46,327 nucleotides of DNA, from the IMG/VR virus record IMGVR_UViG_2802429244_000018, positions 1 to 46,327 of that record; one strand, written 5' to 3'. Each line of letters starts with the position of its first letter. Within the stretch, counting starts at the first letter, position 1. This stretch comes from a virus. Its lineage: Duplodnaviria > Heunggongvirae > Uroviricota > Caudoviricetes. Shown in pieces: positions 15,001-21,000 of this stretch. The position numbers were made by a program.

Positions 15001-18000
15001 AACCAACCGGGAAAATGGACGTAAAAGGCTCTGGAGCGATAACAGACCTGACAGACAACCTTTTCATCATCTGGCGTAACAAGGCTCGTGAGAGAGCGTT
15101 ACAGAGAGTTCAGAGTGGTGAAAAGATGTCAGAGAAGGACGAACAGCTACTGGCATCTCCGGCATCTGTTTTGATGCTTGAAAAACAACGTAACGGCGAA
15201 GGTTGGGAAGGTGGTGTCCCGTTGTTCCTTGACGAGCAATCGCACCAGTTCCTGCAACTTGAATCAGGATCGCCATATAGCTACATCGCCAATATGCCGA
15301 AATCGGAATATGACGAGGCGTGGCGACAGGAAAACGTGACGGAGTATTAAATGAATAAAAAACAATTAGCCATTCTCGAAAAGGCATGGGATGCACAAAT
15401 ATCATGCGCTTTGAAAGAACAGGCACTACCAATAATCCAGACCAAATCGAAAATAGCCAGGCAGTTATGCGATGACGGATTCCTGAACGAAGTTGAGATT
15501 ACGCGCCAGATGGTAACGTTTAAAGGGTATGAGATAAATCATCATGGTATAGCAGCGTATTGTTCCCATCTTCCTGATGACGTTGACATTGATGAAATGG
15601 AAAGGGAGATGAAGCAATGACCATCTACATCACTGAGCTAATAACAGGGGCTATTTACACAGTAGCCCTTTTTTATTGGATTAAGAACGAGGGGGATCCT
15701 GATGGACACCGTTAACGGAATGTGTTCAGACGCACCGCGTGCCAAGAAATGTAAATGCGGAAAATCACCGACAATATTCGACATGGAGAACGGGTGCCAA
15801 ATCTACTGCGCTAACCACGCTGCTGTGGCGGCCGCGAATTATCGCAGTGCGGTAACGGAGTGGAATAACCTGAAATCTGTTAGAGAGGGAAGTCATGAAA
15901 AAACTAACCTTTGAAATTCGATCTCCAGCACATCAGCAAAACGCTATTCACGCAGTACAGCAAATCCTTCCAGACCCAACCAAACCAATCGTAGTAACCA
16001 TTCAGGAACGCAACCGCAGCTTAGACCAAAACAGGAAGCTATGGGCCTGCTTAGGTGACGTCTCTCGTCAGGTTGAATGGCATGGTCGCTGGCTGGATGC
16101 AGAAAGCTGGAAGTGTGTGTTTACCGCAGCATTAAAGCAGCAGGACGTTGTTCCTAACCTTGCCGGGAATGGCTTTGTGGTAATAGGCCAGTCAACCAGC
16201 AGGATGCGTGTAAGCGAATTTGCGGAGCTATTAGAGCTTATACAGGCATTCGGTACAGAGCGTGGCGTTAAGTGGTCAGACGAAGCGCGACTGGCTCTCG
16301 AATGGAAAGCGCGATGGGGAGATCGGGCTGCATGACTATCAAATCAAATACGCCAGCACACGACAAGGACTGCTGGCAAACGCCGCTTTGGCTTTTTGAT
16401 GCACTGGATATTGAGTTTGGATTCTGGCTGGATTCGGCAGCGAGCGATAAAAACGCTCTGTGCGCTCACTGGCTAACTGAGGCCGACGACGCGCTCAATT
16501 CTGAGTGGATAAGCCACGGTGCAATCTGGAATAACCCACCGTACAGCAATATCAGGCCGTGGGTGGAAAAAGCCGCTGAGCAGTGCATACAACAGCGACA
16601 GACGGTAGTGATGCTTGTGCCAGAGGATATGTCTGTCGGATGGTTCAGCAAGGCTCTGGAGAGTGTTGACGAAGTTCGCGTCATTACTGATGGACGGATT
16701 AATTTTATCGAACCATCGACAGGGCTGGAGAAGAAGGGAAACAGCAAAGGCTCCATGCTGCTGATTTGGCGACCGTTCATCAGTCCTCGACGGATGTTTA
16801 CTACCGTATCCAAAGCGGCATTGATGGCGATCGGGCAGGGTGTCAGGAGGGCTGCATGATAAATGTCGTTAGTTTCTCAGGTGGCAGGACGTCAGCATAT
16901 TTGCTCTGGCTAATGGAGCAAAAGCGACGGGCAGGTGAAGACGTGCATTACGTTTTCATGGATACAGGAGCAGAGCACCCTAAAACATATGAGTTCATTC
17001 GAAATATCGTCAGTAACTGGAAAATAGACTTACATTGCCTTCGTGTAATACCTAATCCAGAAATGGGGAAGGCCAGTAGTTATGAAGAGATAGGTGTCAC
17101 TGATATTGGTCCAGATCTTATACCGTGGAAAAGGATGTTGAATAAATACGGACATCCATATATCGGCGGTGCGTTCTGTACCGACAGAATGAAGTCTGTT
17201 CCATTCACCAAATATTGTCAGGAAAAGTTTGGGAAAGGAAATTACATCACATGGCTTGGCATTCGCACAGATGAACCAAACAGGCTTAAAAGGGCTAATG
17301 GTTTTCGGTATCTGGCTGATATAAGCGATTTTGAAAAACAGGATGTGCTTGATTGGTGGAGTGAGCAGAAGTTTGATCTTGGCATACAGGAGCATCTTGG
17401 TAATTGTGTTTTCTGCATAAAAAAAAGTATGCAAAAGGTGGCGCTGGCAGCCATGGATGAGCCAGAACTTGCAGATGCATTTATCAACATCCTTGATACA
17501 GAAATAAAAACAGGAAAGGAACCGGTTATGTATCGAGGTAATAATACACTTAAATCACTGATTGCCTTGTTTAGTGATATATCAAGAGATGAGTTAGCCT
17601 CAAGAATGACATCAATGCGACAGTATGATTCAGGTTCGTGTTCTGAATCATGTGAAGCATTTTCATGTCAGCTTGGATTTAATTTTGAGGATGCGGCATG
17701 AGGCGACAGCGACGAAGTATCACCGACATCATCTGCGAAAACTGTAAATACCTTCCAACGAAACGCTCCAGAAATAAACGCAAGCCAATCCCAAAAGAAT
17801 CTGACGTAAAAACCTTCAACTACACGGCTCACCTGTGGGATATCCGGTGGCTAAGACATCGTGCGAGGAAATGACGATGACTGCGTATTACAACGAAATA
17901 GATCCGTATGCAGCGCAATGGCTGCGTAACTTAATTGACGCTGGAGAAATTGCCCCCGGTTATGTAGATGAAAGGAGTATTGAAGATGTCACACCAGGTG

Positions 18001-21000
18001 ATTTGCGAGGATTTACCCAGCACCACTTTTTTGCAGGAATCGGAGTTTGGAGCTATGCACTTAGAAAAGCAGGATGGCCAGACAACAAGAGTGTCTGGAC
18101 AGGAAGTTGCCCATGCCAACCTTTCAGCTCGGCAGGCAAAGGAAAAGGGGTTGATGACGAGCGGCACTTATGGCCGGCATTCTTCTGGCTTATTGAAAAA
18201 TGCAATCCTGGCATCGTTATTGGCGAACAGGTTGCAAGCGCAGACGGCCTCGCTTGGCTCGACCTTGTACAAACTGACTTGGAAGGTGCGAACTACACCT
18301 CTGCAGGTACCGATATTTGCGCTGCGGGCTTCGGTTCTCCGCACATCAGGCAGCGATTGTATTGGGTGGCCTACTCCAACGACAAATATCAACTTTCAGC
18401 CAGAAACGCGCAGGGGAATTCAGAACCTATCTGGATGCGTGAGACTAGCTGGATGGCAAACTCCTTTAGCGAACGATGCAACAGGTTCAACGCATTGCTA
18501 CAGCGGAAAAGACAAGAGCGGAACCCCAAGAATCTGCTTGAAACTTCCCGGGACGGTGAAGCTATGTACCCATTACCGGTTAACGGCTTCTGGAGAGATG
18601 CAGACTGGCTTTACTGTAGAGATGAAAAATATCGTCCAGTTAGACCCGGCTCATTCCCGATGGTTAATGGCATTGCCAAAAGCTTGGGACGAGGCAAGTC
18701 CACACTGGGAGGAATGGCAAAGCGCAATCAAGATCAGCGAATTATTGGATATGGAAACGCAATCAATGCAGAAGTAGCAACGGCATTCGTGAAAGTTTGT
18801 ATGGAGGTTGTTAATGCTTAGCCTATCCCAATACCTCCAATACCAGAAAGAAAGCGTCGAGCGGGCTTTAACGTGCGCTAACTGCGGTCAGAAGCTGCAT
18901 GTGCTGGAAGTTCACGTGTGTGAGCACTGCTGCGCAGAACTGATGAGCGATCCGAATAGCTCAATGTACGAGGAAGAAGACGATGAGTGATTTCTCTGAG
19001 CTTATTTCCTTCAAAAAAGACAGAGAAGAAATGCGGACTGAATCTGTCTATTACGTTCAACACCGGAATAAACGCTCGGTGCTTGATCAGAATCTGATTA
19101 TTACCGGAGACCTGGCATTCAGAACATATAAGGCCAGCATGGAAATGAAGGATTTCCCTAAATGTGGTTCTGAAAGAGAAGCCGCGTTAAAGCTGGCTGA
19201 GTGGATGCAGAGAATGGCTGCTGCAATTGAGAATTACTGGAGTGAACCATAATGGCTAACCTACGCAAAGAAGCACGCGGCAGAGAATGCCAGGTACGTA
19301 TTTACGGCGTATGCAATGGCAATCCTGAAACTACAGTTCTGGCACATTACCGGATGGCTGGAATTTGCGGAACGGGAATGAAGCCTGACGACCTGATCGG
19401 CGCATGGGCTTGTAGCGCGTGTCACGATGAAATCGACCGACGCACCCATAACCTCGACAACAAAGACGCCAGACTTTACCACCTCGAAGGCGTGATCAGG
19501 ACGCAGGCGATACTGCTGAAGGAGGGGAAGATTAAGTCATGAACGAATATCAGTTTGTGCTTCCATACCCGCCGTCGGTGAATACCTACTGGCGAAGACG
19601 GGGAAGCCAATACTACATCAGCGATAAAGGCCAGAAATACCGAAAAGATGTACAGCAAATAATCCGCCAACTCAAGTTAGACATTTTCACCAAATCACGA
19701 CTCCGCATCAAAGTCATCGCAGACGTTCCAGACTCCCGCCGCCGCGACCTCGACAACATTCTTAAAGGTTTACTCGACTCCCTTATCCATGCCGGATTTG
19801 CGGAAGACGACGAGCAATTCGACGACATTCGTGTAATTCGTGGTGTGAAAGTACCAGGAGGAAGGCTTGGAATAAAAATCACCGAACTGGAGAACGTATG
19901 AACGCCACAATTCAAACGATACCAGAGCTTCTTATCCAGACACGAGGCAATCAGACCGAAGTGGCGAGGATGCTTTCCTGCGCAAGAGGAACAGTGCTCA
20001 AGTACAACCGAGACAGCAAAGGCGAGCGTCACGTAATAGTTAACGGCGTCCTGATGGTCAAACAGGGCAAGAGGGGAAGACGATGAGCATAAGAGAACTA
20101 AACCTCACCAAAGAGCAGCACGAGTGGCTGAATGGCTGGCTTGAACTGTGGGGAGCATGGGTTTATTCAGGTCGTCTGGAAAAGCGCATGAGCAGCGTAA
20201 TAGCGAAGTTCATGGAGAGCGTAGAGCCGGGAAGAGTTATGACAAGGCCAATGTGTAATGATGATGATGGAATGTTGATTTCTCAGGTCGTCGATTCCGT
20301 CATGTGCATTGACAAGAAAGCCTTTGGCATCCTCCTCAGCTACTACGCTCATGGTTCATCTAAGCGAGCAATTGCATCCTACTATCACGCGACTGCAAAG
20401 CCACGCAAGATGTGTGGACGTGGTGGCGAGGGATGGCGAAAACCTTCACTGGCAACCTGTAGAAACGAAATTGACGACATCCTGAAAGCGTCATTATTTG
20501 TTTTATACCAGCCAATGCAAAATGCTTTCAAAATGCGTAAACGTGTAGAGAAAGTTAAGCATATTGCTGTTAAAAGTCTTGACATGCAATTAGCCATTTA
20601 GCCATAATTAGAGGGTAAGCTGCCGTTAGTGACTCTTAAGTTGCAACGGTGGCTTTTTTTATTTGGGTCAGTCGTATAAAGGTCATTACGGAAGGCTGTT
20701 AACCTTCTTATCGTGGTTCGAGTCCACGCTGTCCCGCCAAACATGCTGGTTTAGCTCCAATGGTAGAGCAGTCGCCTTGTAAGCGAATGGGTAGCGGTTC
20801 AAGTCCGTTAACCAGCACCATAACTGAGCCGTAGCCACTGGCTATCCTGAATTCATCAGTGATAGTTACGCTGCGGCCTTCTTTTTTCCCCTTCCCAATA
20901 TAAGAACTACGCAATCCGTTACTGGCGGAGGCGTTGCTATGAAATCAATGGACAAAATCTCTACTGGCATTGCCTACGGAACATCCGCGGGTAGTGCGGG

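Follow-up and report, generated by a model that had tools for sequence, protein, structure and literature searches.

The window analyzed here is the whole 46,327-nucleotide stretch of the IMG/VR virus record IMGVR_UViG_2802429244_000018 (Caudoviricetes). It is a lambdoid prophage whose nin region encodes two DNA methyltransferases (MTases), one of the N6-adenine Dam family and one of the cytosine-5 type (C5-MTase). The gene of the latter (17871..18821, + strand) appears to specify two proteins. Besides the annotated catalytic chain, called alpha here, a second open reading frame (ORF), called beta (17986..18777, + strand), lies wholly inside it in the +1 frame. This frame encodes what alpha does not provide, namely a target-recognition domain (TRD) built of repeats and a motif IX-like segment. 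An earlier note on this DNA had described the C5 protein as short, with a possibly unusual or missing TRD. This is true of the annotated frame, which has neither motif IX nor a selected TRD, but not of the gene, since both are encoded in its +1 ORF. Taken as a whole, the data are best explained by independent Dam, NinC and two-polypeptide C5-MTase modules, the two methylases modifying progeny DNA, and this explanation is considered likely.

Evidence for a Second Coding Frame

The lead to beta came from Burkholderia phage vB_SR1, whose annotators called the other frame over the same DNA. In the window, the +1 frame is open over 269 codons inside the C5 gene (17968-18777), to be compared with +1 runs of 29-131 codons in the other long genes of the window. 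It is open in all 81 loci compared; its median open length is 301 codons, or 88% of the gene, versus 48 codons for the +2 frame, which never exceeds 95. The composition of alpha in itself favors an open +1 frame to some extent, since +1 runs are still long after synonymous-codon shuffling (107 codons on average and 294 at most), with only 6 out of 5000 shuffles reaching 269 codons. This tendency is one of the arguments for an alternative reading, in which the annotated 316-aa protein would be a complete single-chain C5-methylase and the +1 ORF a non-functional by-product of its amino-acid sequence. This alternative can also draw on the fact that part of the beta conservation, for example AHANLSARQAKEKG over motif IV, is a +1 reading of conserved alpha codons. 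Moreover, beta alone has no Pfam match and no PDB sequence match, whether searched as a single sequence or as a profile, and RefSeq annotates alpha only. The persistence of the open frame in 81 diverged loci speaks against it.

A putative translation start of beta can also be recognized. A Shine–Dalgarno (SD) sequence, AAGGAG (17972..17977, + strand; alpha codons GAA-AGG-AGT), is located 8 nt upstream of the ATG at 17986, the whole AAGGAG-N8-ATG start extending over 17972-17988. The SD uses the rare AGG Arg codon, and the ATG arises from GAT-GTC. The Asp codon at this ATG is GAT in 41 of 41 distinct homolog contexts, and never GAC; AGGAG is present in most of these contexts. Conservation of the SD and ATG through a fixed GAT and a rare AGG codon is difficult to reconcile with a mere by-product of alpha.

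Further insights were obtained from a codon-phase analysis, in which mismatch rates at alpha codon positions 1/2/3 were determined over 1024 homolog pairs. Upstream of beta, the rates of.07/.07/.35 correspond to an ordinary single-frame pattern. They are.08/.03/.17 where beta overlaps motifs IV-VIII, and.09/.10/.33 after the beta stop. In the gene middle, they become.388/.215/.178. The most variable position there is the third position of beta and not that of alpha, which designates beta as the selected frame in this part of the gene. From FWRDADW to the beta stop, rates of.17/.09/.16 indicate dual constraint. Identity to the window residue was also compared between the two frames: it ranges from 0.12 to 0.29 in the alpha frame versus 0.26 to 0.56 in the beta frame over the gene middle, and amounts to 0.49 versus 0.86, respectively, at the motif IX-like AHSRWLMALP. 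This better conservation of beta in the middle and at motif IX also argues against the single-chain alternative. Dual coding of the gene and selection on the predicted beta product are shown by these comparisons of homologous sequences.

A stretch of about 60 nt (18591-18650, + strand) is strongly conserved in both frames, as WRDADWLxCRDxxxRPV in alpha and as SGEMxTG...M..G.QL in beta. It is a short segment of true dual constraint.

Putative Target-Recognition Repeats and Motif IX in Beta

The predicted 263-aa beta product is built of GSTLYKLTWK..TP...LRAS.RRTS, followed by GW(P/Q/V/T)TP..(N/D) modules in variable number, and has a C-terminal part of the form RLT.SGEM.TG..M..G.QLNPAHSRWLMGLP..WD. 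The window beta has just two of these TRD-like modules (GWPTP and GWQTP), which explains why the window C5 gene is short. It also includes the motif IX-like QLDPAHSRWLMALPKAWD. This segment (residues 218-235; 18637..18690, + strand) aligns to RLNPAFPEWMMGWPTGWV of gp71 from Mycobacterium phage WillSterrel.

In the single-chain gp71, motif VIII is followed by three LLPTP...DG modules, then by RLNPAFPEWMMGWPTGWV as motif IX and by GNGVVP as motif X. Single-chain phage C5-MTases of this type, with their LLPTP/WPTP repeat TRDs, have the same catalytic core as the window enzyme, a repeat TRD, motif IX (LNPAxxxWxMGxPxxW) and then the GN of motif X. The differences lie in the arrangement. In gp71, all these elements are in one frame and motif I is N-terminal, whereas the window gene distributes them over two frames, with the core and motif X in that of alpha and the TRD and motif IX in the +1 frame, and has motif I after motif III.

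When compared by hhalign, the alpha profile matches gp71 residues 57-158 (E 2e-15) and the beta profile matches residues 189-360, i.e., the LLPTP repeats and LNPAFPEWMMGWPTGW (E 6.9e-5). An alpha-N/beta/alpha-C chimera assembled in silico matches PF00145 end to end (profile positions 5-322). The beta families phrog_1008 and phrog_31772 are labeled "DNA methyltransferase" in PHROGs. Beta is shown by these profile comparisons to be homologous to a TRD plus motif IX, and the target sequence is most likely recognized by its xWPTP repeat modules. The presence in beta of motif IX and of TRD-like repeats homologous to those of a single-chain enzyme, with no motif IX in alpha, again argues against a complete single-chain alpha.

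Among the weak matches to beta, no single-chain relative was found; the gene of Klebsiella phage KPN N137 is of the alpha/beta type again. The protein collection includes 2784 beta-like proteins, none of them with a Pfam domain. The protein cluster of the window beta allele comes from raw assemblies only, and this allele is thus essentially unannotated. In Dunaliella viridis virus SI2 (533-1704), a PF05869-like Dam gene is followed by a 134-aa "cytosine methylase," a deletion remnant with only the alpha N- and C-terminus; a 104-aa +1 ORF of this virus still has GWPTP and LNPALSRWLMGLP.

The Predicted Catalytic Subunit, Alpha

The alpha chain (316 aa, annotated by RefSeq as 314 aa from the third codon) comprises motifs II, III, I and IV-VIII, a linker, a conserved hairpin and motif X. 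It matches phrog_363 with 309 bits and PF00145 with 52.7 bits (cut-off 22 bits), the latter over profile positions 65-207 only; its TIGR00675 score of 42.5 bits is under the cut-off of 100.65 bits. Residues E9, F54-A-G56-x-G58, P81-C82-Q83, E119-Q-V, R160/R162 and G295-N296 are invariant in 35 homologs. The PCQ motif is present (CPCQ), and motif VI is EQV instead of ENV. Among the 50 matches listed by Foldseek for the alpha model, the named ones are C5-MTases (M.HhaI with E 2.5e-8, HaeIII, DNMT2, DNMT1). The PF00145 profile, the fold and the invariant catalytic residues identify alpha as a C5-MTase, with predicted activity.

The AlphaFold model of alpha is of moderate quality, with a predicted local distance difference test (pLDDT) value of ~65-83 over residues 1-170 and below 50 over residues 172-296. 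No motif IX is present in the alpha frame, and the middle of the chain is poorly conserved and rich in indels among homologs. In this gene middle (18381..18578, + strand), alpha residues 171-236 form an unconstrained linker of low confidence, and the beta frame has the conserved repeat modules. A truncated or decayed gene had to be considered as the cause of the "missing TRD," and this was rejected, the C5 gene being intact, with 99% conservation across 11 E. coli genomes.

The canonical I-to-X motif order in one chain is not observed, alpha having the order II-III-I-IV...VIII-X. At the very start of the chain is AYYNEIDPYAAQW, similar to motif II and the helix that follows it. The FFAGIGVWSYALRKAGW segment (motif I and its helix) sits between motif III (EDV) and motif IV (PCQ), the transposed motif I segment, FTQHHFFAGIGVWSYALRKAGW, being encoded at 18006..18077 (+ strand). 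When residues 47-69 are moved to the N-terminus in silico, the PF00145 score increases from 52.7 to 70.5 bits and the profile span from 65-207 to 5-211. The same move improves the match to M.HhaI from 31.5 to 41 bits, extends it from residues 70-175 to 17-175, and brings FFAGIGVWSYALRKAGW into alignment with LFAGLGGFRLALESCGA. Motif II precedes motif I in 220 of the 220 homologs in which both motifs could be located. The order of elements over residues 1-170 of the AlphaFold model is strand-helix-strand-(short helix)-strand-helix-strand. Judged from these alignments, motif I is transposed to a position between motifs III and IV throughout the family. If confirmed structurally, this would be an unusual topological variant of the methyltransferase fold.

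CmoX from Synechococcus phage S-B43 (PDB 8YF3), which comes at rank 10 in Foldseek, has a C5-MTase fold like alpha. It differs by an Arg in place of the motif X Asn, by an SPPC motif and by its usual CmoA or ligase neighbors. A carboxy-S-adenosylmethionine (Cx-SAM)-dependent carboxymethyltransferase requires Arg at the motif X Asn position (PMC12783734). This Asn is kept in alpha (GYGNAI, with N296 invariant), which argues against such an activity, and the alpha motif is CPCQ and not SPPC. A CmoX-like reading of the C5 enzyme was thus rejected.

A Proposed Two-Chain Enzyme, Its Precedent and Alternatives

In the proposed model, alpha would provide a complete S-adenosylmethionine (SAM)-binding and catalytic domain, with motifs II, III, the transposed I, IV-VIII and X. 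Where the small domain normally lies, it would have a disordered and unconstrained linker, bridging motif VIII to the conserved hairpin and motif X. The internal ribosome-binding site and ATG would start the +1-frame beta, which would itself be the small domain, with the xWPTP repeat TRD and motif IX. The two chains would then associate to form the active enzyme, by analogy with M.EcoHK31I.

In M.EcoHK31I, the beta chain lies wholly in another frame within alpha and contributes motif IX, the enzyme being active only with both chains (PMC2836561). The window C5 gene has the layout of M.EcoHK31I (and M.EaeI), where alpha has the catalytic motifs and motif X: its beta ORF lies inside alpha in another frame, with motifs I-VIII and X in alpha and motif IX in beta. 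Association of alpha and beta, as well as catalytic activity, are predicted from this analogy. The window gene differs from M.EcoHK31I in its context, the latter being part of a restriction-modification system, whereas the former is an orphan of a prophage nin region, with ninE and ninF as neighbors. It differs also in the location of specificity, since the TRD of M.EcoHK31I has been described as part of alpha, whereas the TRD-like repeats of the window enzyme are in beta and the middle of its alpha is unconstrained.

Several observations weigh against the two-chain model. The likeness to M.EcoHK31I was established at the level of layout. The hhalign probability of beta versus the single-chain gp71 is only 63%, and the PF00145 gain obtained with the chimera is small (+3 to +4 bits). 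To the lack of Pfam and PDB matches mentioned above should be added the low confidence with which beta folds, its AlphaFold model having a mean pLDDT of 44 and being therefore too poor for a fold search. The beta start is not universal, a subgroup of homologs having ATG-TGA at the corresponding position or no SD. Finally, the homolog pairs used in the codon-phase analysis are not independent.

The synthesis of one polypeptide through programmed ribosomal frameshifting, from the alpha N-terminus into beta (+1) and back to alpha for motif X, is an improbable alternative. It is attractive in that alpha(1-170)-beta(~119-239)-alpha(~283-316) would have the canonical VIII-TRD-IX-X order and, as seen with the chimera, PF00145 is then matched end to end. 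However, two frameshifts in opposite directions would be needed, and no slippery site was seen, although none was looked for. Beta has its own dedicated and conserved SD and ATG far upstream, at alpha codons 39-40, and the alpha frame is still selected in FWRDADW...RPV, where it overlaps the C-terminal part of beta, both of which make a double frameshift less likely. The experimentally studied precedent also uses two separate chains. As for a self-sufficient alpha with a meaningless +1 ORF, it is hardly credible in view of the conserved beta start and the substitution pattern of the gene middle.

Distribution of the Family and Implications

No near match to the window C5 gene was found among 50,697 phage records. 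It is present at ≥99% identity in 11 of 5426 complete E. coli genomes and annotated between ninE and ninF in all 11. The C5 family comprises at least 3235 clusters at 50% identity (E <= 1e-30); full-length alpha is found in ~215 phage genomes and beta in 218. Alpha alone is annotated in RefSeq E. coli genomes, epsilon15 and Erwinia phage Eho59, and both overlapping ORFs in Kagunavirus K1ind2. The Burkholderia phage records annotate the beta frame only, as a "putative metabolic enzyme" in vB_SR1 and as a "DNA repair protein" in related records.

A broader proposal, made tentatively since it is more doubtful than the reading of the window itself, is that the phage C5 family represents an unrecognized class of obligate two-subunit C5-MTases. 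In this class, the linker of the catalytic subunit would be overprinted, in the +1 frame, with the small domain (modular WPTP-repeat TRD and motif IX), and strand 1/motif I of the Rossmann fold would show a non-circular transposition to between motifs III and IV. The two-chain principle itself has already been characterized with M.EcoHK31I, and both halves already have PHROG families. If the proposal is true, target specificity would evolve as repeat modules are gained, lost and exchanged in a hidden frame, and half of the enzyme would be missing from most genome annotations. A recoded clone of the annotated ORF would destroy beta and probably give an inactive enzyme, and specificity predictions based on the "variable region" of alpha would be made in the wrong frame. 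The C5 family would also be a large natural data set on overprinted genes, and a naturally split C5-methylase could be of interest for targeted-methylation tools.

In its catalytic part, a 300-aa homolog (P0002) shares ~65% identity with the window protein, to which it is nearly identical through the middle (NDKYQLSAR...EAMYPLPVN; window 18381-18600). The near-identity concerns the DNA encoding the beta repeats, which suggests recombinational exchange of the specificity module between catalytic backbones.

The Dam Methylase and NinC as Independent Modules

The earlier note had listed two MTases of different classes around a gene of the 3′-phosphoadenosine-5′-phosphosulfate (PAPS) reductase family. 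Both classes were confirmed by profile search, N6-adenine with PF05869/TIGR01712 and C5 with PF00145. The phage Dam-family N6-adenine DNA methyltransferase (175 aa; 16332..16859, + strand; phrog_111) scores 218 bits with PF05869 and 263 bits with TIGR01712, whose equivalog cut-off is 97 bits. The NPPY catalytic motif is visible in its translation (IWNNPPYS). It resembles the other members of this phage Dam family (T1, HP1 and Stx-phage type) in its full-length profile match, small size and NPPY motif, with no notable difference. Members of the family are reported to be GATC-specific. The gene shows 98% nucleotide identity to the Dam genes of many lambdoid and Shiga toxin (Stx) phages, and the Dam, NinC and NinE segments show 98% nucleotide identity to many lambdoid, P22-like and Stx phages.

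The ninC gene (16856..17701, + strand) encodes a 281-aa PP-loop/PAPS-reductase-family protein, with 35 bits for PF01507 (cut-off 22.5 bits) and 378 bits for phrog_33262. Full-length comparison with lambda NinC gives 57% identity (E 3e-119), which together with the PF01507 match bears out the assignment of the protein as NinC. Its PP-loop reads SFSGGRTS, and SGGRTS as well as the CxxC and CSESC cysteines are conserved with lambda NinC. Bona fide PAPS reductases have a C-terminal catalytic Cys motif, ECGLH. No ECG(L/I)H motif is present in the 281-aa NinC translation, the scores are far under the PAPS-reductase equivalog cut-offs, and PAPS reductases of the PDB match NinC in the PP-loop region only, with E ~0.3. 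On these grounds, NinC is not a true PAPS reductase. Its PP-loop and the four cysteines conserved with lambda NinC suggest an ATP-pyrophosphatase with a metal or iron–sulfur (Fe-S) site.

Lambda NinC resembles that of the window in its position after ninB, its PP-loop and its cysteines; the window differs by an inserted Dam gene that separates ninB from ninC. In lambda, NinC occurs without an MTase. Conversely, the order is ninB-ninE-C5-ninF, without Dam or NinC, in E. coli strain YP3, and other prophages without NinC show either this order or ninB-Dam-ninE-C5-ninF. In 80 viral contigs encoding a C5-protein relative, the neighborhood was surveyed over 8 kb around the gene, the queries being NinC of the window, NinC of lambda and the Burkholderia-phage PAPS-reductase-family protein. 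A PAPS-reductase-like gene was found within 8 kb of the C5 gene in none of these 80 related viral loci. A second MTase, of the amino type, is located near the C5 gene in 51 of the 80. The families concerned are MT-A70-like (31 loci), PF05869 (17 loci, often directly upstream) and N6_N4 (5 loci). The recurring unit is thus a C5 methylase with an adenine/amino methylase, and NinC is a bystander, given the 0/80 co-occurrence, lambda NinC without MTase and the C5 gene without NinC elsewhere. A functional coupling of NinC with the methylases was rejected for the same reasons, each module also occurring alone, and the grouping of the two MTases "around" this gene has no functional meaning.

Orphan methylases in lambdoid nin regions are common and already annotated, so that the initial observation, as worded in the earlier note, is routine. 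In Erwinia phage Eho59 (128-2559) and epsilon15, the ninB-ninF interval has an MT-A70/IME4-like adenine methylase and the same alpha/beta C5 gene; a nin region with two methylases is thus a recurrent layout, in which the adenine enzyme is interchangeable. In Burkholderia phage vB_SR1 (3848-8175), a C5 alpha/beta gene, an N6_N4 MTase gene, a PAPS-reductase-family gene and a ParB-helix-turn-helix (HTH) gene lie in a row. The PAPS-reductase-family protein of this phage is just 24% identical to NinC, over the N-terminal part. Outside enterobacterial phages, an association of MTase, PAPS-reductase and ParB genes is possibly recurrent.

Probable Biological Role of the Methylases

The tR2-like terminator upstream of the nin genes places the MTase genes, located 3′ of it and 5′ of Q, in an N-antitermination-dependent delayed-early operon. 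Because of this position, neither methylase should be expressed in the lysogen, and both are expected to work on phage DNA as it replicates. Within this translationally coupled operon, they would be made on induction or infection and not in the lysogen. Adenine and cytosine sites of the replicating phage DNA would then be modified by them, and the progeny would escape type I-III restriction in the next host. Prophage MTases have been described as silent in lysogens and protective on induction (PMC4659465; PMC12707154). The most likely role is evasion of restriction, the progeny DNA being methylated during lytic growth; this anti-restriction role is inferred. Of the two roles suggested by the earlier note, anti-restriction self-protection agrees with both the operon position and this literature, and the same position makes an epigenetic one in the lysogen unlikely.

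Two considerations temper the anti-restriction role. It is drawn from genomic context and literature, and the depletion of palindromes in the window is general, pointing to no specific target: GATC, CCWGG, GGCC, GGWCC and CTAG are all at 0.42-0.54 of the Markov expectation. GATC is at 0.43 of its maximal-order Markov expectation although the phage carries its own Dam, and GAGCTC at 0.13.

Orphan MTases are suggested to regulate viral cycles (review PMC12707154), and the main function of the methylases could in principle be epigenetic control of the lysogen or the lysis-lysogeny decision, rather than defense against restriction. This is improbable as well. The genes lie 3′ of the tR2-like terminator in the pR operon, and no internal promoter stands above background in the region, with 12 promoter-like sites versus 11.7 expected. 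Comparable prophage MTases are transcriptionally silent in lysogens (PMC4659465). The pairing of C5 with interchangeable N6 families also fits broad protection better than a specific regulatory site.

Another proposal would unite Dam, NinC and the C5 enzyme in one DNA-modification pathway leading to hypermodification, NinC for example adenylating or thiolating a base, or modifying a cytosine adduct. It can be supported by the nature of NinC, a PP-loop ATP-pyrophosphatase-family protein with four conserved cysteines, by the side-by-side C5 alpha/beta, N6_N4 MTase, PAPS-reductase-family and ParB-like genes of Burkholderia phage vB_SR1, and by the existence of certain phage C5-MTase homologues installing carboxymethyl handles for ATP-dependent ligases (PMC12783734). 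The survey of the 80 viral loci and the MTase-free lambda NinC speak against it, as do the C5 genes without NinC or Dam and the limited identity of the Burkholderia protein to NinC. The determinant of carboxymethyltransferases, Arg in place of the motif X Asn, is moreover absent, N296 being invariant. Such a pathway is very unlikely, and protection of progeny DNA by two separate methylases is retained as the preferred reading.

Nin Region Layout and Prophage Context

Six products are encoded on the + strand between 15895 and 18990, in the order NinB, Dam, NinC, NinE, C5-MTase-like protein and NinF. All the genes named in the earlier note were recovered by ORF, translation and profile analysis, on the + strand and at the positions it had given, and its list is correct in every particular. 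Besides those already described, these are ninB, encoding an Orf-family recombination mediator (15895..16335, + strand; PF05772, 184 bits), ninE (17698..17874, + strand; PF05322, 148 bits) and ninF (18814..18990, + strand; PF05810). ATGA start/stop overlaps are found at four successive junctions, NinB/Dam, Dam/NinC, NinC/NinE and NinE/C5. The tR2-like intrinsic terminator, 5′ of the nin genes, consists of a 10-bp stem followed by a T run (15646..15670, + strand), and pR-like and pR′-like promoters are at their expected places too. Such a mosaic nin region is ordinary for a lambdoid prophage; the interval has three independent accessory modules between ninB and ninF.

Profiles were run on the early-left genes, on the repressor and replication region, and through the nin genes as far as YbcO, stopping short of the late and structural genes. 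No restriction endonuclease is evident in this scanned part of the window, in line with the claim that no cognate nuclease lies nearby. Nucleases are represented by an HNH gene at 2964-3419, by YbcO and by a RusA-like gene, the last read from its translation without a profile; these are ordinary lambdoid functions.

The window starts with an integrase gene (1-1074, minus strand). It further comprises an early-left operon (N, an Nmad5-domain gene, a Sak4-like annealase and a single-stranded DNA-binding protein, SSB), a cI-like repressor, a primase-helicase, the nin region, Q, two tRNAs, and lysis and structural genes. No equivalent of the whole window was found in 5426 complete E. coli genomes; the best match covers just 48% of it, which indicates a mosaic prophage.

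The gene immediately downstream of N (8852-9535, minus strand) has a full-length match to Pfam Nmad5 ("nucleotide modification associated domain 5"; 239 bits) and belongs to phrog_1965, of unknown function. It is followed on the minus strand by genes for a phrog_1376 protein (function unknown), the Sak4-like annealase and SSB, these neighbors lying at 7710-8732, 6559-7239 and 5975-6562. The Nmad5 gene may simply belong to this recombination module. Finally, tRNA-Asn(GTT) and tRNA-Thr(TGT) are encoded between Q and the holin gene (20665-20820, + strand), just 3′ of a strong pR′-like promoter at 20579-20608.

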